DNA of 24,000 nucleotides from Pseudochrobactrum asaccharolyticum (GTDB lineage Bacteria; Pseudomonadota; Alphaproteobacteria; Rhizobiales; Rhizobiaceae), in the NCBI RefSeq assembly GCF_003314995.1, contig NZ_QNRH01000001.1, forward strand, positions 659,436 through 683,435, read 5' to 3'. Both the position numbers and the translations under genes were made by a program. Positions 3,268 through 24,000 of this stretch are shown here, in pieces. Each line of letters begins with the position of its first letter. Positions within the stretch are counted from its first letter, which is position 1. The notes under the pieces are model-generated. The model had not been told where the DNA came from, ran no database searches, and saw nothing but the letters and a program-made list of their open reading frames with translations.

Positions 3268-3284
3268 AATCAGAACGATAACGG

Positions 3285-5910: not shown

Positions 5911-6025
5911 CTTAATTCGATGAAAGAAAAATATTCTGTCTGCTGTATAAAATGCAGCAGTAAGCAGATGCGATTCTCTGGATACAGCTTAGGCTGACAG
6001 GGATTAACAGGGGGGAACAGGCCGT

Positions 6026-8996: not shown

Positions 8997-9024
8997 GGTG
9001 TTCTCGATTTCAGAAACGGAGCTA

Positions 9025-9059
9025 AAACAGAAAAAAGACAGGCAGCACTCTGCTGCCTG
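9025..9059 (-). terminator. Rho-independent terminator of the haem-receptor gene
   Basis: 9-bp GC-rich stem CAGGCAGCA (9039-9047) / TGCTGCCTG (9051-9059), loop CTC. On the minus strand it is followed by TCTTTTTTCTGTTTT. Confidence 0.85.
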
Positions 9060-9082
9060 CCAGACTGGAGAGAGTTGGCGTA

Positions 9083-11200
9083 TTAGCCGCCGAAACGTCC
9101 GGTAATTGCGACCTTGAAAGTACGTCCCTTACCTTGCTCAATATCTGAGGTGGTTGCCCAGCCGGTCTGTGCATCTGTATAGGCTTTGTTGAAAATGTTA
9201 TCGACGCCGAAGTCGAGTTTAACATTGTCTGTGACCTGCCAGTTGGCAAAGAGATTAACCAGATCGGTGCGTGGATAAACGGTCACACCATTGCTGATCG
9301 CACGGGTAACCTTGCCGACGCTTTGATATTCAACGCCATAAACCAGTCGGTCATCCAGTGCTTTCAAACCGAGCGCAGCGCTGAAATTATGCAGCGGTGT
9401 GTTGCTCAGGGATTCGCCTTTGTAGATGCCGTCTTTCATTTCCGCATCGGTGTAGGAGGCGGCGAGGTTCACATAGCCCCACCATGTGTCATAGGTGCCT
9501 TCCAGCTCCACACCACGCAGACGGGCTGTGCCGACATTCTCGGATGTTGTGTACTTGTCGATTTTAACGGTGTTGATGTAGTCCTTCACATCCGTATGGA
9601 AGATATTCAGCTTGCTGCGCAGCTGATCACCGGCCTCAATCAGATTTTCCTGTCGCAGATTGATGCCAATTTCATAGGTGGTAGCGACTTCCGGTTTCAG
9701 GAACAGGTTCGGCTCATAACCGGAGCCATGTGAACCGTTTTGACGGAACACATCCTGCATATGCGGCACGCGGTAGCCTTGTGCATAAAGACCGTAGAAC
9801 TGGATGCCTTCGATTGGTGTGATGCCGACACTCAGGCGCGGTGACACACGATTGCCGTCAAGGCTGACATCCTGAGAAGGATTGGTTGGTGTGGCTTTGC
9901 TGGTGCCGTCGAGCTTATAGCCGTCATAGCGCACGGCACTGATGACCTCGAGCCATTTCTGATATTCGCCCTGCCATTGCACAAAGCCGCCATAAGCCTG
10001 CTGCTCACCATTGCCGAAATTATCGGTATCGGAGCGACCGCGCAGCTTATAATAATCCAAGCCGTAAGTGACTGTATGTTTCAGCGCTTCTGTTTCAAAA
10101 CGCGAGCTGTTATGTGCACGGAAACCGGATGTTGAAACATCGTAATAACGGGTTGTGCCAAGGTTTTTCAGCGGCCAGACCTGATACTGATCATTCTCTG
10201 TGGCGGCATGATAGGCATTGACCGAGAGATCCCAGAACGGATTATCATCCGGCCGGTAGGTATAGCTGCCGGTATAGGTGCTGACGATAGTATCGGCATC
10301 ATAACGCGACAGGGTTGCGGAAGAGGAACCGCTGCTGCCGGTGATAATGTCTTCATATTTCTGGCGGGAGATACCGAATTTCAGCTCATGGCCTTCTGCC
10401 GGACGCATGGTGACTTTACCCATGCCGCTGATTGCTTTTTCACCCGTCCAGCGCACATAATCGCCGTCACCGTTTTTATATTCGTCACTGTCGCGGTAGT
10501 TCAGATTACCGATAATGTCGATATTCTCATTGAAGCGGTAAGCACCGGTGGTGCTGGTGAGAAAGCCTTTGCCATTGCTCTCATAGCGCAGCTTTTCGCT
10601 CAAAGCCCATGTTTCACCGTCATTCAGGAAATCGCGGGCATCTTTGGTTTCAAAGGCAACCACGCCGCCAATCGCACCGGAACCATAGATGTTGGAAACG
10701 GGGCCACGGATGACAGTCACCTGCTTGAGCAGTTCCGGTTCGATATAGAACGAGCCGGATCCGTGCCCGACACGCCAGTAGTCCTGTCTCGCGCCGTCAA
10801 GTGTCACTGCCACACGGCCATATTGCTGAAGACCGCGAATATTAATCGAGGTTGCCGGATCATCACCGTTCAGTGAGGCATGAACACCCGGCGTGAAGCG
10901 GAAAATATCCGCAGACGTCACCGGCTGAATACGGTCGATCTGCTGGCGGGAGATCAGACTGGTCGAGGCAATCGCGTCAATCACAGCTTGATCATTGCTG
11001 AGCGGGGAAATGGTAATGGTATCAAGTTCCAGCACCTGTTGTTTGGTTTTCTCTGCGCTGGTTTGTGTTGCTGCCTGCTGCTCTGTCTTGACAGGTTTGG
11101 TTTGTGCCTGAACCGGAGAGGCGGCCAAGGCCAGCAGTCCTAAGGTGCTGAGCACTGTCGTACTCATCAAACGGAAAGCAGATTTTTGCGAGATATTCAT
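9083..11200 (-). CDS. TonB-dependent haem/haemoglobin outer-membrane receptor
   Basis: 705-aa ORF. It has a signal peptide (...LLALAASPVQA|Q), a TonB-box-like LDTITIS, a plug domain (RGLQQYGRVAVTLDGARQ, IEPELLKQVTVIRGPVSNIYGSGAIGGVVAF) and a long beta-barrel. The haem-receptor FRAP/NPNL region is recognisable as YRVPHMQDVFRQNGSHGSGYEPNLFLKPE, with the His between the two boxes. Confidence 0.88.
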   Translation of the reverse strand: MNISQKSAFRLMSTTVLSTLGLLALAASPVQAQTKPVKTEQQAATQTSAEKTKQQVLELDTITISPLSNDQAVIDAIASTSLISRQQIDRIQPVTSADIFRFTPGVHASLNGDDPATSINIRGLQQYGRVAVTLDGARQDYWRVGHGSGSFYIEPELLKQVTVIRGPVSNIYGSGAIGGVVAFETKDARDFLNDGETWALSEKLRYESNGKGFLTSTTGAYRFNENIDIIGNLNYRDSDEYKNGDGDYVRWTGEKAISGMGKVTMRPAEGHELKFGISRQKYEDIITGSSGSSSATLSRYDADTIVSTYTGSYTYRPDDNPFWDLSVNAYHAATENDQYQVWPLKNLGTTRYYDVSTSGFRAHNSSRFETEALKHTVTYGLDYYKLRGRSDTDNFGNGEQQAYGGFVQWQGEYQKWLEVISAVRYDGYKLDGTSKATPTNPSQDVSLDGNRVSPRLSVGITPIEGIQFYGLYAQGYRVPHMQDVFRQNGSHGSGYEPNLFLKPEVATTYEIGINLRQENLIEAGDQLRSKLNIFHTDVKDYINTVKIDKYTTSENVGTARLRGVELEGTYDTWWGYVNLAASYTDAEMKDGIYKGESLSNTPLHNFSAALGLKALDDRLVYGVEYQSVGKVTRAISNGVTVYPRTDLVNLFANWQVTDNVKLDFGVDNIFNKAYTDAQTGWATTSDIEQGKGRTFKVAITGRFGG

Positions 11201-11262
11201 ATGACCCCCGATTATGCGGCCGGTACGCAGCGGGAGAAAATTTCATGCTGCAGGCTTGCATT

Positions 11263-11324
11263 AAGTTGACTCGTTAGCTCATGTTTAATAGGGCTATATA
11301 AATCATGATAAATAGAGTCAACTT
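11263..11324. promoter_or_regulatory. Divergent promoter region with a 10-bp inverted repeat that embeds two TGA-N9-TCA (RirA/IRO-like) motifs
   Basis: AAGTTGACTC (11263-11272) is the exact reverse complement of GAGTCAACTT (11315-11324). TGA-N9-TCA occurs twice, at 11267-11281 (TGACTCGTTAGCTCA) and 11306-11320 (TGATAAATAGAGTCA). The region lies between the divergent haem receptor (start 11200) and the hmuT-like gene (start 11330 or later). Confidence 0.45.
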
Positions 11325-11329
11325 TAATT

Positions 11330-12241
11330 ATGCGGAACAGACATTTGTGCACAAAGGTGGAAAATCATCCCTGTAAACGGCCGTTTGGCGTAAAAATCTT
11401 GCTTAAAAATGCGCTGCTTATTTTGCTGCTTGGCTTTTGCTATAATGCTCAGGCACAGGAGCAGGGAACAGCACAGCGTATTATAACGCTGGGGCCGGAT
11501 GTGACCGAGATTGTTTATGCGCTTGGCAGTAGCGACAAAATTGTAGCTCTTGACCGCAGCAGCAAATATCCGGCGGATACAGCGAATAAAACCAATGTCG
11601 GCTACCGGCGCAGTTTATCAGCCGAAGGCGTGCTGGCACTGCATCCTGATCTTATCATTGCATCAGAGGATATCGGCCCGCCGGAAGTGGCGGATGTGCT
11701 TAACCAGTCCGGTGTGCCCGTGCTGTATATTCCGGCGATCAACAGTCGTGAGGGGCTGATTACCAAGGTGAGCATGATTGCTGAACGTCTGAACCTGCAA
11801 GCGCAGGGAGAGGTGCTGACAAAGCAGATCATTGCGGATTTTGATGCAGCCATGGTGCATGTGCGTAAAGTCTCGGAAGGGCGCGGCAAGAAGGTGGTAT
11901 TTTTCCATGGTCTGACCAAACTGAGCGGTGCAGGCAGTGACACGGCGGCAGATGCTTTTATCCGTCATGCGGGCGGGGTTAATCCGCTGTCCGTCTATAA
12001 AGGTTATAAAGCCGTCTCCGAGGAATGGTTGCTGGAGGCTGAACCGGATGTGGTGCTGATGCTCTCTGACGGTGCCGGTGGCCCCAAGCCGGAGGATGTG
12101 TTTTCTGTTAAAGCGCTGCAAACCACGCCTGCGGCCAAAAGCAAATCACTGATTGTACTGGACGGGCCTTATATGCTTGGCTTCGGCCCTCGCACGGCGG
12201 AAGCTGTACGCATTCTGGCTGATGCGCTTTACGGGCAGTAA
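11330..12241 (+). CDS. hmuT: Haem/haemin ABC transporter periplasmic substrate-binding protein (HmuT-like)
   Basis: 303-aa ORF. The blocks RIITLGPDVTEIVYALGSSDKIVALD, VGYRRSLSAEGVLALHPDLIIASEDIGPPEV and VPVLYIP are collinear with HmuT/ChuT-type class III binding proteins as I recall them. The signal peptide is ...ALLILLLGFCYNAQA|QEQ. The start is uncertain: ATG 11330 gives a long N-region, and TTG 11399 would give a compact signal peptide (MLKNALLILLLGFCYNAQA). Confidence 0.82.
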   Translation: MRNRHLCTKVENHPCKRPFGVKILLKNALLILLLGFCYNAQAQEQGTAQRIITLGPDVTEIVYALGSSDKIVALDRSSKYPADTANKTNVGYRRSLSAEGVLALHPDLIIASEDIGPPEVADVLNQSGVPVLYIPAINSREGLITKVSMIAERLNLQAQGEVLTKQIIADFDAAMVHVRKVSEGRGKKVVFFHGLTKLSGAGSDTAADAFIRHAGGVNPLSVYKGYKAVSEEWLLEAEPDVVLMLSDGAGGPKPEDVFSVKALQTTPAAKSKSLIVLDGPYMLGFGPRTAEAVRILADALYGQ

Positions 12242-12247
12242 TTACAT

Positions 12248-12823
12248 TCAATCATCAATTTTCTTCGGCAGCAGTTTTTCAATATCGCGGAAAATCTGCT
12301 GCCATTCATCTTCATTCAGATCAAAAAGCTGAAAACTGCGCAGCAGAAACGCACCCTCATTGGCTATAAAAGCTAAGCGGGCATTGCGCCCTTGTTCTGT
12401 TGATACATCCAGTTCGCTCAGTTGCTGACGATACCATTGACGGGTATCTGCCAGATGCTCGGAATTGGGGATCAGTGCAGCCAGCATTGCGGCAAAGCGT
12501 GAGTCACCGAGCGGATCACTATCGCGCGTTACCCGTATATGCGCGGCAATATGGGACAGCATGTCGGTTTTACCGTTTTTCTCGGTTGTAACCTTCTTGT
12601 CAAATTTATTGCCCCAACGGGTGAGCATGGCATCAACCAACCCGTCTTTGGTGCCGAAACAATATTGCACTCCGCCTTTGGTGATACCTGCTGCTTTAGC
12701 CAGCGCATCAATCGTCAAAGCAGTGGCACCATGCTCGACGACAATTTTCTCCGCCAGATCCAGCAAGTGATTGCGGTCGATTGTGCGGGGGCGGCCGATT
12801 TTTGTGTGTTTTTTACTTTCCAT
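12248..12823 (-). CDS. TetR/AcrR-family transcriptional regulator
   Basis: 191-aa ORF with an N-terminal TetR HTH (GRPRTIDRNHLLDLAEKIVVEHGATALTIDALAKAAGITKGGVQYCFGTKDGL). It is divergent from an MFS efflux-type gene. Confidence 0.9.
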   Translation of the reverse strand: MESKKHTKIGRPRTIDRNHLLDLAEKIVVEHGATALTIDALAKAAGITKGGVQYCFGTKDGLVDAMLTRWGNKFDKKVTTEKNGKTDMLSHIAAHIRVTRDSDPLGDSRFAAMLAALIPNSEHLADTRQWYRQQLSELDVSTEQGRNARLAFIANEGAFLLRSFQLFDLNEDEWQQIFRDIEKLLPKKIDD

Positions 12824-12831
12824 ACGTATGG
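12820..12831. promoter_or_regulatory. Perfect 12-bp palindrome overlapping the TetR start codon (candidate operator)
   Basis: CCATACGTATGG at 12820-12831 is self-complementary. The TetR ATG is the complement of 12821-12823. Beside it, GATTTAAA (12831-12838) recurs at 12903-12910. Confidence 0.35.
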
Positions 12832-12911
12832 ATTTAAATTATCGACCTTCGGGTTTCAAGTGTTTATTGCAACGATCAGCTCCCGGATACGTTGCAGACT
12901 TTGATTTAAAC

Positions 12912-12928
12912 GTGCTGAAAAACAGCAC
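12912..12928. promoter_or_regulatory. Inverted repeat GTGCTG-N5-CAGCAC just upstream of the MFS RBS (candidate TetR operator)
   Basis: GTGCTG (12912-12917) / CAGCAC (12923-12928) with spacer AAAAA. It lies 20 nt upstream of the MFS ATG at 12948. Confidence 0.35.
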
Positions 12929-12947
12929 AACAGAAGTGGATTTTACA

Positions 12948-14447
12948 ATGGCATTACAAAACCGCTGGCTGGTTCTGGCCATCGTTTCGAGTGCATTATT
13001 TTTAATCGTTATTGATATGACAGTGCTTTACACAGCTCTGCCGCGCCTTACCCATGATCTTGCGGCAAGTGCTTCTGAAAAGCTCTGGATCATCAATGCC
13101 TATCCGCTGGTCGTTGCGGGCTTGCTGCCGGGTGTCGGCAGTCTTGGTGACCGCCTTGGCCATAAACGCATGTTCACATCAGGTCTCGTCGTTTTCGGAC
13201 TTGCATCGCTGACTGCCGCCTATGCACCGACAGCTGAAGTGCTGATTGCAGCGCGTGTATTGCTTGCCGTTGGTGCGGCGATGATGATGCCTGCAACCCT
13301 CTCGATCATTCGACTGACGTTTGAGGATGAGCATGAACGCTCTTTCGCAATTGGTATCTGGGCGGCAGTTGCCTCCGGCGGTGCTGCATTCGGTCCTGTG
13401 GTTGGCGGTGTGCTGCTCGAATACTTTTGGTGGGGCTCTGTTTTCCTCATCAATGTACCGGTTGTCGTGATCGCGCTGCTCTTTGCCCTGTTTGTACTGG
13501 AAAGCCGCCCCGGTAATAAAAACCGCAAATGGGACCTGATCGGTTCCATTCAGGTGATGATCGGTCTGGTTGGCGTGACTTTTGCGCTGAAAGAACTGGC
13601 AAAGCGTGACGGTTCTCTGGTGTTGTTTGCCGTCGCACTGGTTGTTGGTCTGACCGCGCTGGTTGTGTTCTATCGCAGGCAGCGGGCAACCAACGGCATG
13701 CTGATTGATTTCTCGCTGTTTAGTAACCGCAAATTCTCGTCCGGCGTCATGGCAGCTTCGGTCTCTGCAGCGGCTTTGATTGGTGTGGAGCTGGTTTTCA
13801 GCCAGCGCTTGCAGCTGGTCGCCGGTTATTCGCCGCTCGAGGCCGGTTTGCTCATTCTGCCAATTCCGCTGGCTGCCTTTGTAGCAGGGCCTCTGGTCGG
13901 CTGGGGCTTGCCTAAAATCGGTGCTGCGCGGGTACTGTGGGGCGGGATGATGATTACAGGTCTCGGCTGTACGCTGTATTTGCTGAGCTTCCAGCTACAG
14001 CCACATGTCTGGCTGATCGGGCTGATGATTATGGGCTTTGGTGTCGGTGCGTCAATGACCGGTGCTTCCACGGCTATTATGGGCAATGCACCGCAGGAAA
14101 AGGCCGGTATGGCTGCCTCTGTAGAGGAGGTGTCCTTTGAACTCGGCGGTGCAACCGGCGTTACGATTTTCGGTAGTCTGATGACTGCGATCTACACGGC
14201 TTTCATGGTGATACCAGCAGGTTCAGGCTTTACTGATACCATTCGTGACAGTCTGGATGAGGCATTGTTATTTGCGGAAACGTTGCCTGCGGATCAGGCA
14301 CAGCACTTGCGTGAAATCGGATTCATTGCCTTTGATCAGGCCTTTATGTGGGTGATTGGCACAGCAGTCCTGCTGATCTTTTCAACGGCTTTGCTGATTT
14401 TCCGGATGAACCGGAAATCCTGTGAGGCAGCTTTGAAAAAAGCATAA
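12948..14447 (+). CDS. MFS transporter, DHA2 (EmrB/QacA-type, 14-TMS) drug:H+ antiporter family
   Basis: The track ORF starts at 12771, but that N-terminus overlaps the TetR gene and is not hydrophobic. ATG 12948 (MALQNRWLVLAIVSSALFLIVIDMTVLYTALP...) follows a GAAGTGGA RBS and matches the usual DHA2 N-terminus. The predicted 499-aa protein carries motif A-like GSLGDRLGHKRM. Confidence 0.88.
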   Translation: MALQNRWLVLAIVSSALFLIVIDMTVLYTALPRLTHDLAASASEKLWIINAYPLVVAGLLPGVGSLGDRLGHKRMFTSGLVVFGLASLTAAYAPTAEVLIAARVLLAVGAAMMMPATLSIIRLTFEDEHERSFAIGIWAAVASGGAAFGPVVGGVLLEYFWWGSVFLINVPVVVIALLFALFVLESRPGNKNRKWDLIGSIQVMIGLVGVTFALKELAKRDGSLVLFAVALVVGLTALVVFYRRQRATNGMLIDFSLFSNRKFSSGVMAASVSAAALIGVELVFSQRLQLVAGYSPLEAGLLILPIPLAAFVAGPLVGWGLPKIGAARVLWGGMMITGLGCTLYLLSFQLQPHVWLIGLMIMGFGVGASMTGASTAIMGNAPQEKAGMAASVEEVSFELGGATGVTIFGSLMTAIYTAFMVIPAGSGFTDTIRDSLDEALLFAETLPADQAQHLREIGFIAFDQAFMWVIGTAVLLIFSTALLIFRMNRKSCEAALKKA

Positions 14448-14517: not shown

Positions 14518-15450
14518 TTATTTATCATCTTTCATACGGGCGAAATAATTCGCCAGCAGCGCACCGGAAATATTGTGCCATACGCTGAAGATCGCGCTTG
14601 GTACCGCGGCCAGCGGTGAGAAATGCGCATTGGCAAGGGCTGCACCCAGACCGCTGTTCTGCATGCCGACTTCAATCGCAATCGCTTTACGTTTGGCCAG
14701 CGACATGCCGGTGAGTTTGGCAGCGGTAAAGCCAAGCAGATAGCCGATGCCATTGTGTAGCACCACAACAACAAAGATCAGCAGGCCGGATGTTGCAATC
14801 GCGCCTTTGCTGCCAGCCACAACGGCGGCGACGATCAGTACAATACCGGTTACGCTCACCAATGGCAGAGCAGGTACGGCAGCTTTAACGACACCCGGAA
14901 TAAGCTTCTGCGCGAGAACGCCGAGCGCCAGCGGTACGAGAATGACTTTAACAATGCTCATAAACATTGCCCATGCATCCACCGGCAGGAACTGACTGGC
15001 AAAGAACCAGACGAGGAATGGCGTTACCAGTGGTGCCGCCAGTGTGGTTACACTGGTGCAGGCAACGGACAATGCCACATCACCTTTGCCGAGATAGGTC
15101 ATCACATTGCTCGATGTACCGCCCGGGCAGCAACCGACGAGAATGACACCGGCTGCAACTTCAGGAGACATCGGAATAATCTTGGTCAGCAGCACGGCAA
15201 GCAGCGGCATGATCAGGAACTGGGATGCAACACCGATACCCACATCAACCGGACGACGCACCACTTCACGGAAATCATCGACGGAGAGGGTAAGACCCAT
15301 GCCGAACATAATGATACCGAGCAGGGTAACAATATAAGGGCCGAAGAATTTAAAGGTCTCAGGGAATACAAAACCGAGAACGGCGAACAGCAGAACCCAG
15401 ACCGCAAAGGTCTTGCCTACGAAGGCCGAAAAGCTTGCAAGTGCTTTCAT
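14518..15450 (-). CDS. Bile acid:sodium symporter (BASS/SBF) family transporter
   Basis: 310-aa polytopic ORF with BASS-type blocks: GIIMFGMGLTLSVDDF, LILVGCCPGGTSSNVMTYLGKGDVALSV and AIEVGMQNSGLGAALA. An RBS AAGGA lies ~10 nt upstream of the ATG. Confidence 0.88.
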   Translation of the reverse strand: MKALASFSAFVGKTFAVWVLLFAVLGFVFPETFKFFGPYIVTLLGIIMFGMGLTLSVDDFREVVRRPVDVGIGVASQFLIMPLLAVLLTKIIPMSPEVAAGVILVGCCPGGTSSNVMTYLGKGDVALSVACTSVTTLAAPLVTPFLVWFFASQFLPVDAWAMFMSIVKVILVPLALGVLAQKLIPGVVKAAVPALPLVSVTGIVLIVAAVVAGSKGAIATSGLLIFVVVVLHNGIGYLLGFTAAKLTGMSLAKRKAIAIEVGMQNSGLGAALANAHFSPLAAVPSAIFSVWHNISGALLANYFARMKDDK

Positions 15451-15599
15451 TACAGATAGTCCTTATTCAATAACAGACCCCGATCTAATTTTTATGAGGC
15501 GGCATAGCAAGTTATTAATGAAATAAAAAAGGTCTTATACGGGTAATAAAATGAGTCTGAGCTGATGGCCTATAGGTCTAAAGTTTCATGGGGCACATG

Positions 15600-15636
15600 A
15601 AAAACACCCGCCGTGAGACAGCTCTCACGACGGGTG
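15600..15636 (-). terminator. Rho-independent terminator of the MHS transporter gene
   Basis: On the minus-strand RNA there is a 14-bp stem (CACCCGUCGUGAGA / UCUCACGGCGGGUG, one G-U wobble), loop GCUG, followed by UUUUUCAUG. Confidence 0.85.
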
Positions 15637-15662
15637 CAGTGAATGTGTGACTGACAGAACTG

Positions 15663-16976
15663 TCAGGCTGTCTTTTTATTATCGCTCATTTTGAAAATCG
15701 CGAACAATGCGATGACAGCTGCGATACTGACATACCATGCCGGTGCGCTGTAGCCGAGCGAGGTTGTGCCGAGCCATGTCAGTGCTGCCGGAGCAAAACC
15801 ACCGAAAATTGTGGTGGAGATGTTATAGGCAAGCGACATACCGGTTGAACGGATATGGGTCGGGAAGACTTCGGACAGAGCGGAAGGTGCAACGCCAACC
15901 ACACCGGCAACCATAACACAGAAGCAGCTCTGAACAGTGATCAGGGTGCTGAGTGTTGGTGAGTGATGCAGCCACCACAGCAGCGGATGAATAGCAATCA
16001 GCAGCACGGTTGTGGTGATCGCCAGTGTCAAACGACGGCCGATCTTGTCGGAAACAGCACCGGCAACGATACAACCGACAGCCATAAGACTATTTCCGAT
16101 CAGGGCAGCAATGAATGCCTGTGAACCGGTGAAACCGAATGCACGCTGTACATAGATCGGCATATAGATGATCATGACATAGACGCTGGCTGCCCATAAT
16201 ACGGAGAAGGCTGTACCTTTGAGCAATGCACCGCCATAATTGACGAATACTTCTTTCAGAGGGGCATGTTCTGCAGTTTTGCCTTGTTTATCAAATTCAG
16301 CTTTGAAAACAGGCGTTTCATCCAGTGAACGGCGCATCCACAGACCAACAGGTGCAATCAGCAGGCCGAGGATGAACGGAATACGCCAGCCCCAGTCACC
16401 AACCTGATCTTCAGTGAGAAGTGAGGTGACAGCGAGAGCAACAAAGGCACCAATAATATTGGAAAATGCCATACTGGCCTGCAGCCATGCAGCATATTTA
16501 CCTTTTTGACCTTCCGGCGCATGCTCCACCAGAAAGGCTGCGGCACTGCCGACTTCACCACCGGCTGAGAAGCCCTGCAGCACACGGCCGGCAAGAATAA
16601 TCATCGGAGCGCCGATACCGATCGCGGCATAGGTTGGTGCAATAGCGATCAGCAGCGTACCGGCTGCCATGATCATGATTGTCAGAAACAATGCCGCTTT
16701 ACGACCGGCTTTGTCGGCATAAACGCCGAGGACAACCGCGCCCAGCGGACGGATCAGAAAGCCAAGACCAAAGGCCAGAAAGGACTTGATCAGCTCGACA
16801 GTGTCATTTCCGCCAGGGAAAAAATTCTTGGCGATGTAAACGGCAAACAAAGCGTAGATTGTAAAATCATACCATTCCAGCGCATTACCGATAGAAGCGG
16901 CAGCGACAGCCTTTTTGGCATTGGAATTCGGCTTTGCGTCCGATTTGATAGTTTGATTATGTGTAACGTCCGTCAT
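15663..16976 (-). CDS. MFS transporter, metabolite:H+ symporter (MHS) family (ProP/KgtP/ShiA-like)
   Basis: 437-aa ORF. The blocks AAASIGNALEWYDFTIYALFAVYIAKNFFPGG, FLIRPLGAVVLGVYADKAGRK and WGWRIPFILG are collinear with E. coli ProP/KgtP as I recall them. It lacks the ProP C-terminal coiled coil. An RBS GGGGGA lies ~10 nt upstream. Confidence 0.88.
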   Translation of the reverse strand: MTDVTHNQTIKSDAKPNSNAKKAVAAASIGNALEWYDFTIYALFAVYIAKNFFPGGNDTVELIKSFLAFGLGFLIRPLGAVVLGVYADKAGRKAALFLTIMIMAAGTLLIAIAPTYAAIGIGAPMIILAGRVLQGFSAGGEVGSAAAFLVEHAPEGQKGKYAAWLQASMAFSNIIGAFVALAVTSLLTEDQVGDWGWRIPFILGLLIAPVGLWMRRSLDETPVFKAEFDKQGKTAEHAPLKEVFVNYGGALLKGTAFSVLWAASVYVMIIYMPIYVQRAFGFTGSQAFIAALIGNSLMAVGCIVAGAVSDKIGRRLTLAITTTVLLIAIHPLLWWLHHSPTLSTLITVQSCFCVMVAGVVGVAPSALSEVFPTHIRSTGMSLAYNISTTIFGGFAPAALTWLGTTSLGYSAPAWYVSIAAVIALFAIFKMSDNKKTA

Positions 16977-17104
16977 ATGACAGAATCCCCCAAATATTCC
17001 GGCTGTGGTCTTTTATGTCTCATCTCCCACCAGCAATACGAGACAGTAACAATTTAACTTTGTGTCGGCAGTTGACAAAAAATGAATGTCTCCATAGCGA
17101 AAAA

Positions 17105-17119
17105 CGAAATAGTATTTCG
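17105..17119. promoter_or_regulatory. Perfect 15-bp palindrome in the MHS / LysR divergent promoter region (candidate LTTR operator)
   Basis: CGAAATAGTATTTCG at 17105-17119 has 7-bp arms around a central G. It lies 77 nt upstream of the LysR ATG (17196) and 129 nt upstream of the MHS start (16976). Confidence 0.4.
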
Positions 17120-17195
17120 GCGGAACAATATTTTTGTATTTATGGCATATTGGATTGATATTCCTGATAAAAATCACTGATGAAGGTCTGTGCCT

Positions 17196-19007
17196 ATGAT
17201 CGAGCTGCGGCAGCTTTCTTACTTTGTGGCGGCCTGCCATCAAACCAGCTTCAGCAAGGCGGCTGAAGTTCTGGATATTGCGCTGTCAACTTTGAGTGTT
17301 GCGCTGCAGAATCTGGAAGAGGAAGTCGGCGCGCAACTGTTCCGCCGCGTACCGGCCGGGCTGACGCCGACTGTGGCAGGTCGCTGGCTCTATCGCGCTG
17401 CAATACCACTTTTGCAAGCCGAAGCTTTCACCCGACAGGCCACAATGCGGGAGTGTAACGGGCAATGCGAATTCAGCCATTTGGTGGTTGAAGTGCAGCT
17501 GATGTTCTCACTTGGTAATGTCTCCAAGGCCATAAGCTCGGCTTTGGTCGGCCTGCAAAAAGACTATCCGGAAGTGTTTATCGAGCCACATTGGGGCAGT
17601 TCGGACGGGGAGCCGCCTTTGCCGCTGACCGAGAGTACTGAGAGTAACCGGATAATCTTCAGCTATGAGAAAAAGGGTGTCGCCATTCACGATGATCCGT
17701 GGGTGCTGGCGCGTAGTCTGCCGGTTCAATCCGGTGAGGCTCCTGCCTTGCAGGATATGCTTGCAGGTCCGGTGATTGTTCCGGCACTGCCCGAGCCGCT
17801 CTTGCAGGATTTGTCGGGCTATTTGCAGCAGCATCCGATTAAGAATATCCGTTTTACACAGGATCATCCGGGCACTCTGGCACGCCTGAGTGGCGAGAAC
17901 CCGGATACCGCTTTTCTGGTGCCGCAAAGCACACTAGCCAACCGCATGGGGTTGCATCGCCTGAAACTGGTGCCGCTTGATCCACCGCTTATCAGTCAGG
18001 TGCGGGTGCATATTGCCGATCCGCATCCGGTGGCGGAAGAGACTGTACGCCGTATCCGTGCGGCACTGGCATCCGGAGAGCCTTCAGCACTCTATCAACC
18101 GCAACTGACCAGACGGCAATTCAGCTATTTCCGGCTGATTGACAATAACCGCAATCTGACTGCCGCTGCCCGTGTGGCTAAAGTTGCCCAACCGGCGATT
18201 ACCGGCCAGCTGCGTAAGATGGAGCAGGTGATTGGCAAACAATTATTTGAGCGCCGCCGCGATGGTCTGGTGCCGACTGAGGCAGGGCGCATCTTCCGCA
18301 TTGGTAGTGAACTGATCGAAGCACGTTTGCAATCCATGGCCGTGCATAGTGCGGGATCACTGGGGCGCAACCGGTCGCGTTTACGGATTGGTGTTCTGCC
18401 TTCGGTCAGTCAGGAAAGCACTCTGCTGGCAGGTATGACCGATGCGGTGCTGCGCTGGCGCAAAAGTCACCCGCAGATTGACCTGCAAATTCTCGAAGCG
18501 CCAACCAGTGTTTTGCAGGATTGGGTACAGGCGGGTGTGATCAGCCTTGCCGTGCTGGAAACCGATATGCCGCACATGGCGCGTTTCAGACTCAATGTTG
18601 AGGAACCGCTGTCGCTGATCTGCCATCCCGATCTGGCAGCAGAGCTCTCTCAGGGTACAGGCGTTGATCTGGAAACACTGCGTCAGGTGCCGCTGGTGCT
18701 GCCGACTATGACCTTTGGCATCCGGCAATTGCTGGAAACACAATTGAACGAGCAAAACCTGTCGCTGGAGCCGGTGATTGAAATTAACTCACTGCCGATG
18801 ATGATCGCGATGATCCGGCGCGAAAAGCTTGCAACCTTGCTGCCGGTCTCAGCCGTGCGTCGCGATCTGGAACAGGGCACATTGGTGAACCTTGAACTCA
18901 AGCCGCATATTTTGCGCAGATTGTTTGTGATCTATTCCAATGCCCGCACTCTGACGGTTGCCGAAAGAGAGCTGGTGCGCGAATTGCGCGAGGCACTCAC
19001 ACAATGA
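17196..19007 (+). CDS. Tandem (duplicated) LysR-type transcriptional regulator: two complete HTH + effector-binding modules in one polypeptide
   Basis: The track ORF starts at GTG 17190. ATG 17196 is better placed after the TGAAGG RBS. Module 1 has HTH IELRQLSYFVAACHQTSFSKAAEVLDIALSTLSVALQNLEEEVGAQLFRR plus ~210 aa. Module 2 starts near nt 18105 with HTH LTRRQFSYFRLIDNNRNLTAAARVAKVAQPAITGQLRKMEQVIGKQLFERR, followed by a canonical LysR substrate-binding domain (LRIGVLPSVS...). There is no stop or frameshift at the junction. Confidence 0.85.
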   Translation: MIELRQLSYFVAACHQTSFSKAAEVLDIALSTLSVALQNLEEEVGAQLFRRVPAGLTPTVAGRWLYRAAIPLLQAEAFTRQATMRECNGQCEFSHLVVEVQLMFSLGNVSKAISSALVGLQKDYPEVFIEPHWGSSDGEPPLPLTESTESNRIIFSYEKKGVAIHDDPWVLARSLPVQSGEAPALQDMLAGPVIVPALPEPLLQDLSGYLQQHPIKNIRFTQDHPGTLARLSGENPDTAFLVPQSTLANRMGLHRLKLVPLDPPLISQVRVHIADPHPVAEETVRRIRAALASGEPSALYQPQLTRRQFSYFRLIDNNRNLTAAARVAKVAQPAITGQLRKMEQVIGKQLFERRRDGLVPTEAGRIFRIGSELIEARLQSMAVHSAGSLGRNRSRLRIGVLPSVSQESTLLAGMTDAVLRWRKSHPQIDLQILEAPTSVLQDWVQAGVISLAVLETDMPHMARFRLNVEEPLSLICHPDLAAELSQGTGVDLETLRQVPLVLPTMTFGIRQLLETQLNEQNLSLEPVIEINSLPMMIAMIRREKLATLLPVSAVRRDLEQGTLVNLELKPHILRRLFVIYSNARTLTVAERELVRELREALTQ

Positions 19008-19016
19008 GTGGAAATG

Positions 19017-19050
19017 AAAACAGGCGAAACCGGAGTTTCGCCTGTTCTCT
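19017..19050. terminator. Hairpin terminator shared by the convergent LysR and urocanase-paralogue genes
   Basis: Stem AACAGGCGAAAC (19019-19030) / GTTTCGCCTGTT (19035-19046), loop CGGA. T-rich sequence follows on both strands (plus: CTCTTTACG; minus: TTCATTTCC). Confidence 0.7.
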
Positions 19051-19075
19051 TTACGGGGGGAGGATTTTTTAGCTT

Positions 19076-20722
19076 TTATGCCAGATTGAAGTGGCGGATG
19101 TTTTTCTTTTCCGCTTCGTCCAGCGCTTCTTCATAACCGGCATCGGCATAACGCATCACGCCGAGCGATGTGTCATTGGTCAATGACAGTTCAATGCGGA
19201 CATCCGCATCATCGGTACCATCGGCCACCACAGTCACACCCGCGCTGGTCATATAGCCGGAATAACCGCCGCCGCCGGAATGAATAGCGACAAGATCAGC
19301 TTGCGAGGAGCACATAGCCAGACCATTGATCAGCGGCCAGTCGGCAATCGCATCAGAACCATCACGCATATTCTCAGTCATGATATTCGGATGCGCCATG
19401 GCACCGGCATCAAGATGATCGCGGGTAAAGGCAACAGGGCCGGACAGCGTACCGTCACGCACCATGCTATTCACAGCGAGTGCCAGCTGAGTGCGTTCGC
19501 CATGGCCAAGCCATGCGATACGCGCTGGCAGACCTTCAAACGGCACATTCTCACCGGCGAGATGGATCCAGTTGGTGACAATGCGGTTATCGGCAAATGC
19601 CTTGAGGATGTAATTGTCGATAATGCGGATATCTTCCTGATTATTCGACAGAGCAATCCAGCGGAACGGGCCAATCGCACGGCAGAACAACGGACGCAGG
19701 AAGGCTTCGGTGAAGACCGGAATATTGAACGCATCTGCCACGCCGCCGTCTTTGGCATGGGTGCGGATCAGGTTACCATTGTCAAACACCACTGAACCGG
19801 CTTTCTGGAAACCGAGCATGGCTGTGACGTGACGAACGATGGAAGCGCGGCTTTCATTCATCAGGGTCTGCGGATCGCTCTTACGCATGGCACGGGCTTC
19901 ATCCAGCGAACGGGTTGCCGGTACATAGCCGTAAACCAGATCATGGGCGGAGGTTTGGTCAGTTACGATATCCGGAATGATATTGCGTTCCAGAATCTGC
20001 TCATAAAGATCAGCGGCATTGCCGTGAACGCCGATGGAAACAGCGCGTTTCTCGGCCATCGCTGTTTTGACCTGCGCCAGCGCATCGTCCAGATCTTTGG
20101 CAATCACATCAAGGAAGCCGATATCCTTGCGCTTCTGAATGCGTTCCTGATCGATTTCAACGCAGAGCGTAACCGCACCGGCCATACGGCCTGCCAGTGG
20201 CTGCGCGCCGCCCATGCCGCCAAGACCGGCGGTGAGGATCAGACGACCGGCCAGATTATTATTGAAGCTCTGTTCGGCAATACGCATGAAGATTTCATAG
20301 GTGCCCTGAATAACACCCTGCGAGCCGATATACTGCCAGTCACCGGCAGTAAGACCACCCCAGCAGATCAGGTTCTGCTTTTCCCATTCGTAGAAATTTT
20401 CAGCCTTCGCCCACTGACCAACCATATTACAGTTGGCCATAATCACGACTGGTGCCTGTTTATGGGTTTTCAGAATGCCGATCGGCTTGCCGGATTGTAC
20501 GACGAGCGTTTCGTCTTCTTCAATCTTGTGCAGGCTTTCAACGATTTTGTCATGAGACGGCCAGTCGCGTGCGGCTTTACCAAGTGCGGCATAGACCACC
20601 AGATTGTCAGGGTCTTCACCCACAGCCAGTACGTTTTCCATCAAACGCAGCAGGCCTTCAGCGCGCCAGTTCTTACAGCGCAACTCAGTGCCGGATGTGA
20701 CGTTAAATTGTTTCTTGGACAT
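19076..20722 (-). CDS. hutU: Urocanate hydratase (urocanase) family protein; a divergent paralogue and candidate thiourocanate/modified-urocanate hydratase
   Basis: 548-aa ORF, collinear over its full length with urocanases. Shared blocks are ETLVVQSGKPIG, YIGSQGVIQGTYE, NAD-binding LTAGLGGMGGAQPLAG, VTDQTSAHD, RPLFCRAIGPFRW and MRDGSDAIADWP. Several canonical urocanase motifs are altered; see findings. It is the last gene of a four-gene operon. Confidence 0.9.
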   Translation of the reverse strand: MSKKQFNVTSGTELRCKNWRAEGLLRLMENVLAVGEDPDNLVVYAALGKAARDWPSHDKIVESLHKIEEDETLVVQSGKPIGILKTHKQAPVVIMANCNMVGQWAKAENFYEWEKQNLICWGGLTAGDWQYIGSQGVIQGTYEIFMRIAEQSFNNNLAGRLILTAGLGGMGGAQPLAGRMAGAVTLCVEIDQERIQKRKDIGFLDVIAKDLDDALAQVKTAMAEKRAVSIGVHGNAADLYEQILERNIIPDIVTDQTSAHDLVYGYVPATRSLDEARAMRKSDPQTLMNESRASIVRHVTAMLGFQKAGSVVFDNGNLIRTHAKDGGVADAFNIPVFTEAFLRPLFCRAIGPFRWIALSNNQEDIRIIDNYILKAFADNRIVTNWIHLAGENVPFEGLPARIAWLGHGERTQLALAVNSMVRDGTLSGPVAFTRDHLDAGAMAHPNIMTENMRDGSDAIADWPLINGLAMCSSQADLVAIHSGGGGYSGYMTSAGVTVVADGTDDADVRIELSLTNDTSLGVMRYADAGYEEALDEAEKKNIRHFNLA

Positions 20723-20746
20723 AATAGTACTTTCTATACCGCTAAA

Positions 20747-21835
20747 TCAGGCCAGTGCGTAATCGGCAAGGGAAATGCCGAGTGCCTTTTCGACAATCGG
20801 ATAAACGCTCGGGTCTTTGACCGAGGCGCTGAGCGGAATTTCTGTCTTGTTGATGTGGAACACCAGAATTTCCATACCTTCATGGACATTGCCGACACTG
20901 ACAGGGCTGCCATTTGTATCGAGCGTGGTGATCACATCAGGGAAGGTGGCAAGACGCTGACCGTCACCATCATCCACGGCCATATATTCGTTCATCACAT
21001 GCAGGATCACATCGCGGTTGCCGTCACGCACGGTGATGGTGCCGATGTCGAAAGCTTCCTGCGTGTAGTGCACATTCTTGGCGGTGACTTTGCCCTGTGC
21101 GAGAATGCTGCCATTGGTGGTTTTGCAGATTGCATCAATCACCGCAGTTGCGCCTTTGCTCTGGGCTGCGCGGATGGCTTCGCCAAGGGTCAGAGCACGG
21201 GAGATACCGCCGAGCGCTGCATTCCTGCGCACATAGGAAGCACGCAGCGGATTGCGGCAGCTGGCGATGAAACCACCGGACATATCAGAGGCTTTGCGCA
21301 GGATCGGCGAGATTTTGGCTGTCGCGCCGCGTGTGACCAGCTCGATATAGGAGTTGGAATCACGGTGACCGCCAACGGCTGTCTGGATCATCTGCTCAGG
21401 GCTGTTGGCCATGCCGATGGAGCCCATGTCGCCAGTCGGATGCGCGCGGATATCGCCCACAGCATCAATCACTTTGGTGCCGAGAACAGCGGAAGGCAGC
21501 CAGGCATTCATGGTGCTGGACATGCCGTTCTGGCCGATCATCAGGCCATAGACTTCATCGCCCAACTCATATTGCAGCAGTTCAACGGCTTTCACATAGT
21601 CGATGCCGAGCATTTCCCACTGGGTGGTGCTGGCCGGTGCGCCGATAGCAGCGGCTGTGGCAATCCATGCATCGTCGGATACTTCTTCCATATCCACCAG
21701 TTCAGGCCGGCCAATGGTGACCGCAGTGGTGCCCAGCATACGGCCGTGCTCAACCCAGCCGCCGCCACCGGCTGCAAAGACCGAACCGCCTGCAATTGCG
21801 GATTCCACGTCATCCAATGTTAAAATACGCCCCAT
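20747..21835 (-). CDS. DUF917-family protein (PF06032; hydantoinase-associated; candidate thiohydantoin desulfurase)
   Basis: 362-aa ORF. The N-terminus ILTLDDVESAIAGGSVFAAGGGGWVEHG shows the G-rich motif I associate with DUF917. Its size and its placement among hydantoinase and carbamoylase genes are typical of the family. A strong RBS GAGGAGG sits in the 12-nt gap upstream. Confidence 0.75.
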   Translation of the reverse strand: MGRILTLDDVESAIAGGSVFAAGGGGWVEHGRMLGTTAVTIGRPELVDMEEVSDDAWIATAAAIGAPASTTQWEMLGIDYVKAVELLQYELGDEVYGLMIGQNGMSSTMNAWLPSAVLGTKVIDAVGDIRAHPTGDMGSIGMANSPEQMIQTAVGGHRDSNSYIELVTRGATAKISPILRKASDMSGGFIASCRNPLRASYVRRNAALGGISRALTLGEAIRAAQSKGATAVIDAICKTTNGSILAQGKVTAKNVHYTQEAFDIGTITVRDGNRDVILHVMNEYMAVDDGDGQRLATFPDVITTLDTNGSPVSVGNVHEGMEILVFHINKTEIPLSASVKDPSVYPIVEKALGISLADYALA

Positions 21836-21847
21836 AATGGCCTCCTC

Positions 21848-23134
21848 TTAAATGCTGTTATGTGTTTGATTGGTAACCGGAGTGCGCTCGTCAAAGCGGC
21901 GCACTGCCGCAAACATTGCTGCAGCACCTGCTGCAAGGTCGTGTTTTTCTGCCCATTCTTCCGGTGTATGGCTGCGTCCGCCAAGGCATGGCACAAAGAC
22001 CATGGCGGCCGGTGCCAGCTGGCCGATAAAGGCCGCATCATGCCCCGCACCGCTGGCGAGTTGCAGATGGCTATGGCCGAGTGCATCGGCGCTTTTTGCC
22101 AGATCATCCAGCAGGCCTAAGTCACAATCCATCGGCATGGTGTCGGAAAGGGTCTTGAAGTGGCTGCGCTCCACATTGGCTTTCGCGGCAGCAAGTTGTG
22201 TTGCCGCATCAATGCTTTCCAGAAAACGCAGCGTTTTCTCGCGTTTACCGGTGCGGATGTCGACAATCACCTTGGCCTGTTCCGGCACCACATTGGCACC
22301 GCCCGGCTCAAGGGTGAGAATGCCGACAGTGGCAACAAAATAGCCGTCCGGCTCGGATGCCAAAGCTTCGGCCTGTTCACGGATTGCAGTGACGGCTTGC
22401 GCTGCCGCATAAAGCGCATCGCGGCGCATATGCATTGGCGTGGTGCCCGCATGGTCAGCGGCACCCTGAAAGGCAATTTCCAGACGGGTGATGCCGACAA
22501 TGCCGGTCACCAGACCCAAATCCGTCTTGCTCTGTTCCAGTACAGGGCCTTGCTCAATATGCAGTTCCAGATAGGCGGCAATATCCTTGCGCACAGCCTC
22601 TGAAAGTTTGGCCGGATTGCCGCCGACACGGATCAGCGCATCGCCGAGGCGCTCATCCTGCGGGCCCGTAAAGTCGAGCATAGCATTGGTCAGCTGACCG
22701 CTCATGCCACGGCTACCGACACAGGACAGACCGTATTCACTAGGTTCCTCTGCGAGAAAATCCACCACTTCCAGATTGTGCTGCAACTCAATACCGGCAT
22801 CGCGCAGGGCGCGGGCAACTTCGAGTGCTGCCACCACACCGGCAATGCCGTCAAAGCGTCCGCCGGAAGGCACAGTATCACTATGCGAAGCCATCATAAT
22901 GGTTTTGGCGTGCGGCTTGGCACCGGTACGGCGGCCGATCAGATTGCCTGCGGTATCAATGCGCACCTCAAGACCGGCGGCTTTGAATTGCTCAATCAGA
23001 TAGGCGCGGCCAGCCAGAAAACGCGGCGTAAAAGAACGGCGCGTGTAAGGCTTGCCCGGCTCGGTAATATCGGCCAGCGCCATAATATCCTGCCAGAGCC
23101 GGTCGCCGTCTACGAGCGTGTTGGAGGCCGCCAT
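21848..23134 (-). CDS. M20-family Zn-dependent amidohydrolase (N-carbamoyl-L-amino-acid hydrolase / allantoate amidohydrolase type)
   Basis: 428-aa ORF. The blocks DRLWQDIMALADI, AGLEVRIDTAGNLIGRRTG, IMMASHSDTVPSGGRFDGIAGVVAALE and HTPEE near the C-terminus are characteristic of the AmaB/HyuC/AllC carbamoylase clade. Its start overlaps the upstream stop by 1 nt (TAATG). Confidence 0.88.
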   Translation of the reverse strand: MAASNTLVDGDRLWQDIMALADITEPGKPYTRRSFTPRFLAGRAYLIEQFKAAGLEVRIDTAGNLIGRRTGAKPHAKTIMMASHSDTVPSGGRFDGIAGVVAALEVARALRDAGIELQHNLEVVDFLAEEPSEYGLSCVGSRGMSGQLTNAMLDFTGPQDERLGDALIRVGGNPAKLSEAVRKDIAAYLELHIEQGPVLEQSKTDLGLVTGIVGITRLEIAFQGAADHAGTTPMHMRRDALYAAAQAVTAIREQAEALASEPDGYFVATVGILTLEPGGANVVPEQAKVIVDIRTGKREKTLRFLESIDAATQLAAAKANVERSHFKTLSDTMPMDCDLGLLDDLAKSADALGHSHLQLASGAGHDAAFIGQLAPAAMVFVPCLGGRSHTPEEWAEKHDLAAGAAAMFAAVRRFDERTPVTNQTHNSI

Positions 23135-24000
23135 TACGCGGCTCCTTTACGCAGAGCAGGGCGTACAAAGCGACCGGAACCCGGTTCAGCTGTGACCACA
23201 CCTTCAGCCATGGCGCATTCACCGCGCACAAATGTATGGGTGATGCGGAACGGCAGTGTGATGCCGTCATAAGGGCTCCAGCCGACGATGTTATTGCCGC
23301 TTTCTGCCGCCTTGTAAGTGTATGGATCACGGCGTGCCAGCACGATATCCGCATCAAGACCGGCACCGAGCGCACCTTTGGTCTGACCGAGGCGGAACAG
23401 ATTGGCCGGATTATGTGCCAGCAGACGGGCGGCATGGCTGAGCGACAAACCGCGCTCATCCAGACCTTTGAGCAGCAGCGCATAGAGCGCCTCCAGCCCC
23501 GGAACACCGGATGCGTTTTTCAGCATGTTTTCATCGTTTTTGCGATCAAGCGACCAGCTCACATGATCGGTGGAAACAATGCTCACGTTACCGGCGGCCA
23601 GTTGCTGCCAGATGGCTTCACGCTCGGCGCGGTTGCGTACCGGCGGGTTGATCTTAGCGCGGCCGATCAGACGGCTGACATCATCTTCTTCACACAAGGT
23701 CAGATAGTGGATGCAGGCTTCAACTGTTGCGGCATAGCCCTGTGCACGGTAGCCTGCTGCCAGTTCATAGCCACGGCCAACGGAGCAATGCACCACATGG
23801 GTGGCGCAACCGCTCATGGCGCCGATCTCATAGACTTCTGCCATCGCCAGCGTTTCAGTTACCGGCGGGCGGCTCATGCTATGGGTCAGATAATCGGTGC
23901 GGCCGCTTTTCTCGACCTGATCGATGTAATAGCGCACCATTTCATCATTTTCATTATGAATACCGGCAATCAGACCATGACGGGCAATGGCCGAGAAGCA
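23134..24000 (-). CDS. Cyclic amidohydrolase (allantoinase / dihydropyrimidinase / hydantoinase family), C-terminal ~288 codons (partial; continues past the right edge)
   Basis: The track lists 23134-23940 from an internal Met, but the frame stays open to nt 24000. My translation upstream of that Met reads CFSAIARHGLIAGIHNENDE-MVRYY... The blocks IHNEND, THVVHCS, HYLTL, STDHVSW (metal-binding Asp region) and GADADIV match the allantoinase/hydantoinase fold. Confidence 0.85.
   Translation of the reverse strand, partial: CFSAIARHGLIAGIHNENDEMVRYYIDQVEKSGRTDYLTHSMSRPPVTETLAMAEVYEIGAMSGCATHVVHCSVGRGYELAAGYRAQGYAATVEACIHYLTLCEEDDVSRLIGRAKINPPVRNRAEREAIWQQLAAGNVSIVSTDHVSWSLDRKNDENMLKNASGVPGLEALYALLLKGLDERGLSLSHAARLLAHNPANLFRLGQTKGALGAGLDADIVLARRDPYTYKAAESGNNIVGWSPYDGITLPFRITHTFVRGECAMAEGVVTAEPGSGRFVRPALRKGAA

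Follow-up and report, generated by a model that had tools for sequence, protein, structure and literature searches.

Bacteria reportedly degrade ergothioneine through a five-step catabolic pathway, which was described by Beliaeva, Leisinger and Seebeck in 2021 (ACS Chem Biol 16:397). The first enzyme, ergothionase, is said to have been first characterised in Burkholderia in the series of studies by Muramatsu, and Muramatsu et al. reportedly also described an ergothioneine utilisation cluster in Burkholderia sp. HME13. Both this pathway and characterised ergothionases appear among the works cited by PMC9732360 (ref. 63) and PMC13405746 (refs 40-43). We analysed a stretch of 24,000 nucleotides from Pseudochrobactrum asaccharolyticum (contig NZ_QNRH01000001.1, forward-strand positions 659,436 to 683,435), hereafter the window. 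As judged from the sequence, positions 19076-24000 very likely comprise the last four genes of a five-gene operon, ert, for the conversion of ergothioneine to L-glutamate.

The reaction scheme follows the NCBIfam model names and citing papers, and its chemistry is established at the family level. In this scheme, ErtA would take trimethylamine off ergothioneine to yield thiourocanate, and ErtB, a urocanase paralogue with bound NAD+, would hydrate thiourocanate to 3-(5-oxo-2-thioxoimidazolidin-4-yl)propionate. ErtC would strip the sulfur as H2S to leave hydantoin-5-propionate, ErtD would open the ring to give N-carbamoyl-L-glutamate, and ErtE would release L-glutamate, NH3 and CO2. A tandem LysR-type regulator and a metabolite:H+ symporter (MHS)-family transporter encoded next door are probably part of the same system. 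The classical histidine utilisation (hut) pathway, consisting of HutH, HutU, HutI and HutG/HutF, resembles this scheme in that a PF00221 lyase is followed by a urocanase-fold hydratase with bound NAD+. It differs in that the ert lyase has no 4-methylideneimidazole-5-one (MIO) motif, and in that imidazolonepropionase and formimino-/formylglutamate hydrolase are replaced by a desulfurase, a cyclic amidohydrolase and a carbamoylase. The operon features in the window are as follows.

19076-20722, minus strand: ertB, 548 residues, thiourocanate hydratase, a urocanase paralogue
20747-21835, minus strand: ertC, 362 residues, thiohydantoin desulfurase with a DUF917/S-Me-THD-like fold
21848-23134, minus strand: ertE, 428 residues, N-carbamoyl-L-glutamate amidohydrolase of the M20 family
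23134-24000 onward, minus strand: ertD, C-terminal 288 of 453 residues visible, hydantoin-5-propionate amidohydrolase
21841-21847, minus strand: Shine-Dalgarno sequence GAGGAGG within the 12-nt ertE-ertC spacer, read from the sequence
19016-19049, both strands: hairpin terminator with a 15-bp stem, a 4-nt loop and T-rich tails on either strand

Enzymes were identified by comparing the whole-protein score with the curated cut-off of NCBIfam equivalog models, and Pfam was used for domains. ErtB passed the thiourocanate hydratase model NF058530 (1016 bits, cut-off 930) and missed the S-methyl thiourocanate hydratase model NF058531 (738 bits, cut-off 880). Likewise, ErtC passed the thiohydantoin desulfurase model NF058529 (626 bits, cut-off 440) and missed the S-methyl thiohydantoin desulfurase model NF058532 (287 bits, cut-off 450). 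ErtE passed the N-carbamoyl-L-glutamate amidohydrolase model NF058540 with 588 bits (cut-off 520). The ErtD fragment present in the window reached 461 bits on NF058538 over 281 residues (profile positions 166-446), which is under the cut-off of 600 because the gene is cut by the window edge; no in-frame stop precedes it and the open reading frame (ORF) runs to base 24000. Full-length ErtD, taken from an overlapping contig (L001, see below), scored 742 bits and passed. The assignment of the four genes to steps 2-5 one-to-one, proposed in a first-pass annotation of this sequence, was thus confirmed by the equivalog models for ErtB, ErtC, ErtE and full-length ErtD. Its suggestion that the desulfurase step belongs to the DUF917/PF06032 family was also correct, as NF058529 was passed and both PF06032 and PF20906 carry the Pfam name 'S-Me-THD-like'. 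The two domains are present in ErtC with Pfam scores of 55.9 and 85.6, respectively.

The other domain assignments agree with these identities, and the profile searches proposed in that annotation gave matches to urocanase, PF06032, M20 and Amidohydro_1. ErtB contains PF17391, PF01175 and PF17392 end to end and therefore has the full urocanase architecture. Its translation includes the glycine-rich motif GLGGMGGAQPLAG, which is presumably the NAD+ site. The best match of ErtB in the PDB was 7ned with 786 bits, as compared with 556-608 bits for the other entries of urocanases of bacterial length. We take 7ned to be the deposited thiourocanate hydratase, although the entry is labelled only 'urocanate hydratase'. 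The sole PDB relative of ErtC detected by sequence was the hypothetical protein 2o3i, which was uninformative. ErtE has Peptidase_M20 and M20_dimer domains, and ErtD has an Amidohydro_1 domain. The locus thus shares its five enzyme families with the five-step pathway of Beliaeva et al., including passing scores on NF058529, NF058530, NF058538 and NF058540 and the proximity of ErtB to 7ned, and differs from it in the host, which here is Pseudochrobactrum (Brucellaceae).

The first-pass annotation expected an upstream lyase resembling histidine ammonia-lyase (HAL) beyond nucleotide 24000, and recommended that the contig be extended to look for such a lyase and a regulator. Contigs encoding the same ErtB were retrieved by exact-protein look-up. 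One of them, L001, is 99.7% identical to the window, and another, L002, is 100% identical to window positions 15115-24000 and extends 4.3 kb further. L002 completes ErtD to 453 residues, and the L001 copy showed 100% identity to ErtD in a tblastn comparison. The expected lyase was found on L002 as the first gene of the operon: ertA encodes a 560-residue PF00221 protein with the accession WP_113942916, is separated from ertD by a gap of 66 nt, and starts (L002:2032-2109) about 2.3 kb past window base 24000. The order of the operon is ertA-ertD-ertE-ertC-ertB. Upstream of ertA there is a divergent gene for a 531-residue M20 amidohydrolase (L002:26-1621, minus strand; TIGR01891, 171 bits), and the M20 gene is followed by a SufR-like regulator gene (L001:1635-2312, plus strand). 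These two genes are conserved only in the Pseudochrobactrum group.

The best solved relative of ErtA was the Treponema denticola ergothionase 6s7j (297 bits), and histidine ammonia-lyases scored 141-145 bits. ErtA has GSVGEADIT (GEAD) at the position where HAL and other MIO enzymes have Ala-Ser-Gly, and Ala-Ser-Gly is also missing from all 34 ert-linked lyases that align there. The lack of this MIO-forming motif is the criterion for ergothionases given in the bioRxiv preprint 10.64898/2026.04.22.720169 and in PMC13405746. In addition, K445 of ErtA (FGAMQK) aligns with the Lys of 'IQK' in 6s7j and is retained in all aligned ert-linked lyases. We take the 'IQK' Lys to be the thiolate-binding Lys384 of the T. 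denticola enzyme, with the numbering uncertain by one residue. Lys384 binds the thiolate and is lost in lyases of sulfur-free histidine betaines; in one such lyase, SO_3299, it is replaced by Gln (bioRxiv 10.64898/2026.04.22.720169). These similarities support the assignment of ErtA as a putative ergothionase of the trimethylammonia-lyase branch of PF00221.

We considered whether the operon could act on another modified histidine, namely S-methyl-ergothioneine, hercynine (histidine betaine), N-methylhistidine betaine or ergothioneine sulfonate, a suggestion also made in the first-pass annotation. Such routes have precedents: NCBIfam includes models for an S-methyl thiourocanate hydratase and an S-methyl thiohydantoin desulfurase, PMC13405746 (ref. 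43) refers to an ergothioneine sulfonate pathway in Agrobacterium radiobacter, and lyases for histidine betaine and N(pi)-methyl-histidine-betaine have been described (bioRxiv 10.64898/2026.04.22.720169). However, the two S-methyl models were missed by 142 and 163 bits whereas the ergothioneine models were passed. ErtA keeps a Lys at the position that we align with the residue replaced by Gln in SO_3299, which argues against a sulfur-free betaine, and with hercynine as the substrate the desulfurase would have no purpose. As for the sulfonate, the ert-linked lyases of Rhizobium, Shinella and Pararhizobium are just 28-30% identical to ErtA. A modified histidine other than ergothioneine is thus very unlikely to be the substrate, although the case against the sulfonate is less strict. 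It is less likely still that the hydantoinase-like and carbamoylase genes are a generic hydantoin, allantoin or pyrimidine module located beside a urocanase by chance. ErtD and ErtE do give secondary matches to models of allantoinase, dihydropyrimidinase and allantoate amidohydrolase, but these are under the cut-off except for NF009531 ('Zn-dependent hydrolase', passed by ErtE) and TIGR01879, a broad hydantoinase/carbamoylase subfamily model, whereas the Ert-specific equivalogs were passed and the four genes are tightly packed in the same order across many genomes. The least probable explanation, which we regard as hardly credible, is a classical or paralogous hut operon with a urocanase acting on urocanate and a lyase acting on histidine: ErtB does exceed the cut-off of the urocanate hydratase (HutU) model TIGR01228 (692 bits, cut-off 375) and public records speak of urocanate hydratase and histidine/HAL-family ammonia-lyase, but the thiourocanate hydratase model gives ErtB 324 bits more, ErtA reaches only 253 bits on the hutH model (cut-off 539) and lacks Ala-Ser-Gly, the partner genes encode ErtC, ErtD and ErtE, and neither the window nor ~6 kb of sequence upstream of the operon encodes an MIO-containing HutH, HutI or HutG/HutF beside the urocanase. 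The absence of hutH, hutI and hutG/hutF from the window, claimed previously, was verified by Pfam and NCBIfam scans of the larger ORFs, which represent all likely genes, and the finding of canonical hutH, hutI or hutG immediately upstream, which had been named as evidence against an ergothioneine pathway, did not materialise in the ~6 kb covered.

An ergothioneine pathway remains by far the best account of the operon. The pathway itself is known and was described in 2013-2021, and this operon is an ordinary member. Since dedicated NCBIfam models for the pathway exist, the operon represents a re-annotation rather than a discovery, and the earlier idea of a partly undescribed variant is not supported. 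A full-text literature search gave nothing relevant on thiourocanate hydratase, thiohydantoin desulfurase, or links of DUF917 or LysR proteins to ergothioneine.

The four genes are co-directional and tightly packed on the minus strand, with four ORFs between position 19076 and the window edge. At the ertD/ertE junction, GCGTAATGG, the TAA stop and the ATG start have one base (23134) in common. The spacer between ertE and ertC is 12 nt long (GAGGAGGCCATT, 21836-21847) and contains the Shine-Dalgarno sequence, and the ertC-ertB spacer is 24 nt long (TTTAGCGGTATAGAAAGTACTATT, 20723-20746) without a strong Shine-Dalgarno sequence. The arrangement and the three junctions are as given in the first-pass annotation (a TAATG overlap at 23134, a 12-nt gap with GAGGAGG and a 24-nt gap). 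The terminator, for which positions 19019-19046 had been given, proved to be stronger than stated, and the stem-loop spans 19016-19049. Its folding energy was -25.9 kcal/mol (z = -6.6), and none of 200 shuffled sequences was equally stable. The hairpin was not listed by a consensus terminator scan, probably because the stem runs into the T-run, and was found by folding the region. Since it is located between the convergent ertB and LysR genes (the latter ending at 19007), it can serve both. The close gene junctions suggest that the ert genes form one transcript ending at this hairpin. Neither Rfam nor tRNA scans gave a match in the window or in its extension. The ert genes have GC contents of 0.54-0.58 as compared with 0.49-0.56 for their neighbours, and no clear signal of horizontal transfer was seen in the base composition. 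A 664-residue plus-strand ORF (19829-21823) was rejected as a shadow ORF because it matches no family and runs antisense to well-supported genes.

The Burkholderia-type cluster, represented by that of Paraburkholderia fungorum (L038), has ErtB, ErtC, ErtD and ErtE proteins that pass the same four models. Its lyase is 44% identical to ErtA, has no MIO motif and has a leader-like N-terminus, and an MHS transporter with 62% identity is encoded in the cluster. The gene arrangement is different: in P. fungorum, an ordinary LysR gene of 296 residues separates ertE-ertD from ertC-ertB-MFS-ertA, which are encoded on the opposite strand, whereas the window shows part of a single ertA-D-E-C-B operon, next to which are a 603-residue tandem LysR gene and a transporter gene that is transcribed separately. 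For ErtD and ErtE, identity between the two clusters is no more than 39-43%. The features next to the operon in the window are as follows.

17196-19007, plus strand: tandem LysR-type regulator gene, 603 residues when started at the ATG at 17196; a GTG at 17190 opens the ORF (605 residues)
16977-17189, both strands: divergent promoter region of the transporter and LysR genes, 213 bp, with a perfect dyad CGAAATAGTATTTCG at 17105-17119
15663-16976, minus strand: MHS-family MFS metabolite:H+ symporter gene, 437 residues, divergent from the tandem LysR gene
15604-15637, minus strand: terminator-like hairpin after the transporter gene, 15-bp stem with 9 G-C pairs, followed by TTTTTCATGTG

A usual LysR-type transcriptional regulator (LTTR) consists of one winged helix-turn-helix (HTH) domain and one effector-binding domain in ~300 residues. 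The regulator encoded at 17196-19007 does not conform to this architecture, as its 603 residues comprise two HTH_1 domains and two LTTR-fold units, although it would still function in the manner of an LTTR. Pfam detected the two HTH_1 domains and one LysR_substrate domain, and found no effector domain in the N-terminal half. Comparison of the sequences showed that the two halves are alike only in the HTH region. When the N-terminal half was modelled alone (pLDDT 83, pTM 0.79), the model aligned over ~302-329 columns with the full-length LTTRs BenM, CbnR and OxyR. Since this match extends from end to end, the regulator is, according to the model, two complete LTTR units in one chain, and the first effector domain has diverged too far to be detected by Pfam. 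A dimer of such chains would resemble the tetramer that LTTRs usually form.

Homologues of the tandem LysR protein (~600-653 residues) are encoded beside ert genes in 24 of 88 loci, and among the loci examined they were seen only beside ert-type genes. The word-indexed protein search listed at least seven LysR homologues, the index being saturated by LysR candidates, so that the association with ert is drawn from the loci. Three homologues that were identified purely by sequence, with identities of 65%, 47% and 38%, all adjoin ert-type genes, and one of them is divergent from an MFS-ertD-E-C-B operon. Tandem LysR genes are also present in ert clusters without a lyase gene, and it is thus inferred that ergothioneine is less likely to be the effector than thiourocanate or a later intermediate. 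The tandem LysR protein is a candidate regulator of the ert and transporter genes, and the dyad at 17105-17119 may serve as an operator. An operator common to the transporter-LysR region and the 410-bp region upstream of ertA was sought, but only short imperfect matches were obtained, for example AATAGTATTTCGG versus AATAGTTTTTCGG. On account of their small number and short length, these were judged to be within chance and are kept as a lead. Separately, genes for a UbiD-family decarboxylase and a LivK-type ATP-binding cassette (ABC) transporter adjoin the tandem LysR gene at L019:12807-15421, L088:5153-7937 and in ~25 other loci of the Xanthobacteraceae type; in L088, these genes are in an operon with ErtC-like and urocanase-like genes.

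The N-terminus of ErtA carries a Sec-type leader of 25-26 residues with an A-x-A site, and the boundary falls between MKKLNHLSKLSILTLALLSSSAAYA and QALQLNG. The leader has 3 Lys in the first 9 residues and a hydrophobic core with a mean Kyte-Doolittle value of 2.30. The T. denticola ergothionase is without this extension, which stops exactly at the start of the leaderless enzyme. No such leader was found at the N-termini of ErtB, ErtC and ErtE. Among the other ert-linked lyases, those of Paraburkholderia, Comamonas and Polaromonas have similar leaders; those of Vibrio, Reinekea, Martelella, Devosia and the Rhizobium type are leaderless. In a 2026 preprint (bioRxiv 10.64898/2026.04.22.720169), ergothionases of the aerobic pathway are regarded as typically cytoplasmic, and the only leader-bearing one described there is from an anaerobic-respiration operon. 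This enzyme, the periplasmic ergothionase SO_3057 of Shewanella oneidensis described in the same preprint, resembles ErtA in that the leader directly precedes the conserved start of the catalytic domain. However, SO_3057 serves anaerobic respiration and has a periplasmic flavocytochrome c to which it is coupled, whereas ErtA would head a cytoplasmic assimilatory pathway and has no flavocytochrome gene nearby.

Homologues of the MHS transporter (48-82% identity) are encoded inside or beside ert clusters of other genera, namely Paraburkholderia, Caballeronia, Trinickia, Comamonas, Polaromonas, Janthinobacterium, Herbaspirillum, Bordetella, Acinetobacter and others. In every locus with both a lyase and the MHS transporter, the lyase is of the leader type, and among the loci examined those with a leaderless lyase never carry the transporter. 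The lineages are not independent, and these co-occurrences should be read with that caution. Four leaderless lineages (Vibrio, Reinekea, Martelella and Devosia) have genes for an OpuAC-type betaine ABC importer. EgtUV, the ergothioneine-specific ABC importer (PMC9732360), is comparable to these OpuAC-type systems at leaderless-lyase loci and differs from the system in the window, which has an MHS-family secondary transporter and no such ABC system. Roughly one in two of the ertD-E-C-B clusters compared (L005-L084; e.g. L010, L012, L015, L019, L023 and L085) is without a PF00221 lyase gene within 8 kb, and several clusters have the MHS transporter and no lyase within 8 kb. The lyase-free clusters may be thiourocanate scavengers, or their lyase may be encoded elsewhere.

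Since ErtA has a Sec-type leader, the first step is probably periplasmic. The co-occurrence of leader and transporter, together with the transporter-bearing clusters that lack a lyase, suggests that ergothioneine is cleaved in the periplasm and that thiourocanate is then probably imported by the transporter. The transporter is thus a candidate importer of thiourocanate, or of ergothioneine. Taken as a whole, a pathway split over the inner membrane, in which the Sec-exported ergothionase acts in the periplasm, the MHS transporter imports thiourocanate and the tandem LysR protein senses thiourocanate or a later intermediate, is a tentative proposal to which we give somewhat less than an even chance. 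Several points speak against the assignments made here. NCBIfam has no model for ErtA, which was assigned by similarity together with two diagnostic positions, and the leader was called heuristically by simple rules. The transporter is under every curated cut-off (TIGR00883, 380 bits with a cut-off of 443; TcuC, 354 bits; ProP, 267 bits), and carriers of carboxylates as well as of betaines are among its nearest named relatives.

The distribution of the system was examined by scanning for ErtC with one genome per species. Relatives of ErtC were found in >575 stretches from species-level genomes. The best 80 of the >575, with identities of 69-100%, belong to Alpha-, Beta- and Gammaproteobacteria. 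The order ertD-E-C-B is kept in most alphaproteobacterial loci, in dozens of genomes. Identical proteins are on record for P. asaccharolyticum as RBO99022-RBO99028 under the names urocanate hydratase, DUF917 family protein, Zn-dependent hydrolase, HAL/PAL/TAL family ammonia-lyase, MFS transporter and LysR family regulator, and plasmid-borne ErtC homologues are labelled just DUF917 or hypothetical protein. A contig labelled Bacillus subtilis SK6B4 (JAHREI010000002.1, L007) shows 96-99% protein identity to the Pseudochrobactrum locus over the genes compared, and this assembly is probably mislabelled or contaminated.

The remaining part of the window contains the following genes. The three from 7911 to 12241 form an iron/haem uptake group.

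908-1900, minus strand: N-acetyl-D-glutamate racemase DgcA (NF042940, 463 bits, cut-off 400)
2080-5811, plus strand: Mla/Mce-like ABC system, comprising an MlaE permease with an N-terminal STAS domain followed by an ATPase, an MlaD-domain protein and an auxiliary lipoprotein
7911-8996: siderophore-interacting FAD reductase
9083-11200: TonB-dependent haem/haemoglobin receptor (TIGR01785, 451 bits)
11330-12241: periplasmic binding protein
12248-14447: TetR repressor gene beside a divergent SmvA/QacA-like MFS efflux gene

The efflux ORF of 558 residues, which has a TTG start and overlaps the TetR ORF, is probably over-extended, since the gene call on L001 has 499 residues. A minus-strand ORF of 395 residues (5912-7099) was rejected as a shadow ORF; it has no family match and is antisense to a well-supported gene.

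The public names of these proteins read as a hut-like set, whereas the genes very probably specify the degradation of ergothioneine with release of trimethylamine and sulfide. In PMC13405746, ergothionase-dependent catabolism is described as confined to a few genera, and the presence of ErtC relatives in >575 genomes runs against this statement. If the pathway is indeed split over the inner membrane, this would explain the many transporter-bearing ertDECB clusters without a lyase, which would scavenge thiourocanate from other bacteria. The periplasmic first step, the candidate thiourocanate importer and the tandem LysR regulator would give testable handles on ergothioneine uptake, regulation and cross-feeding.

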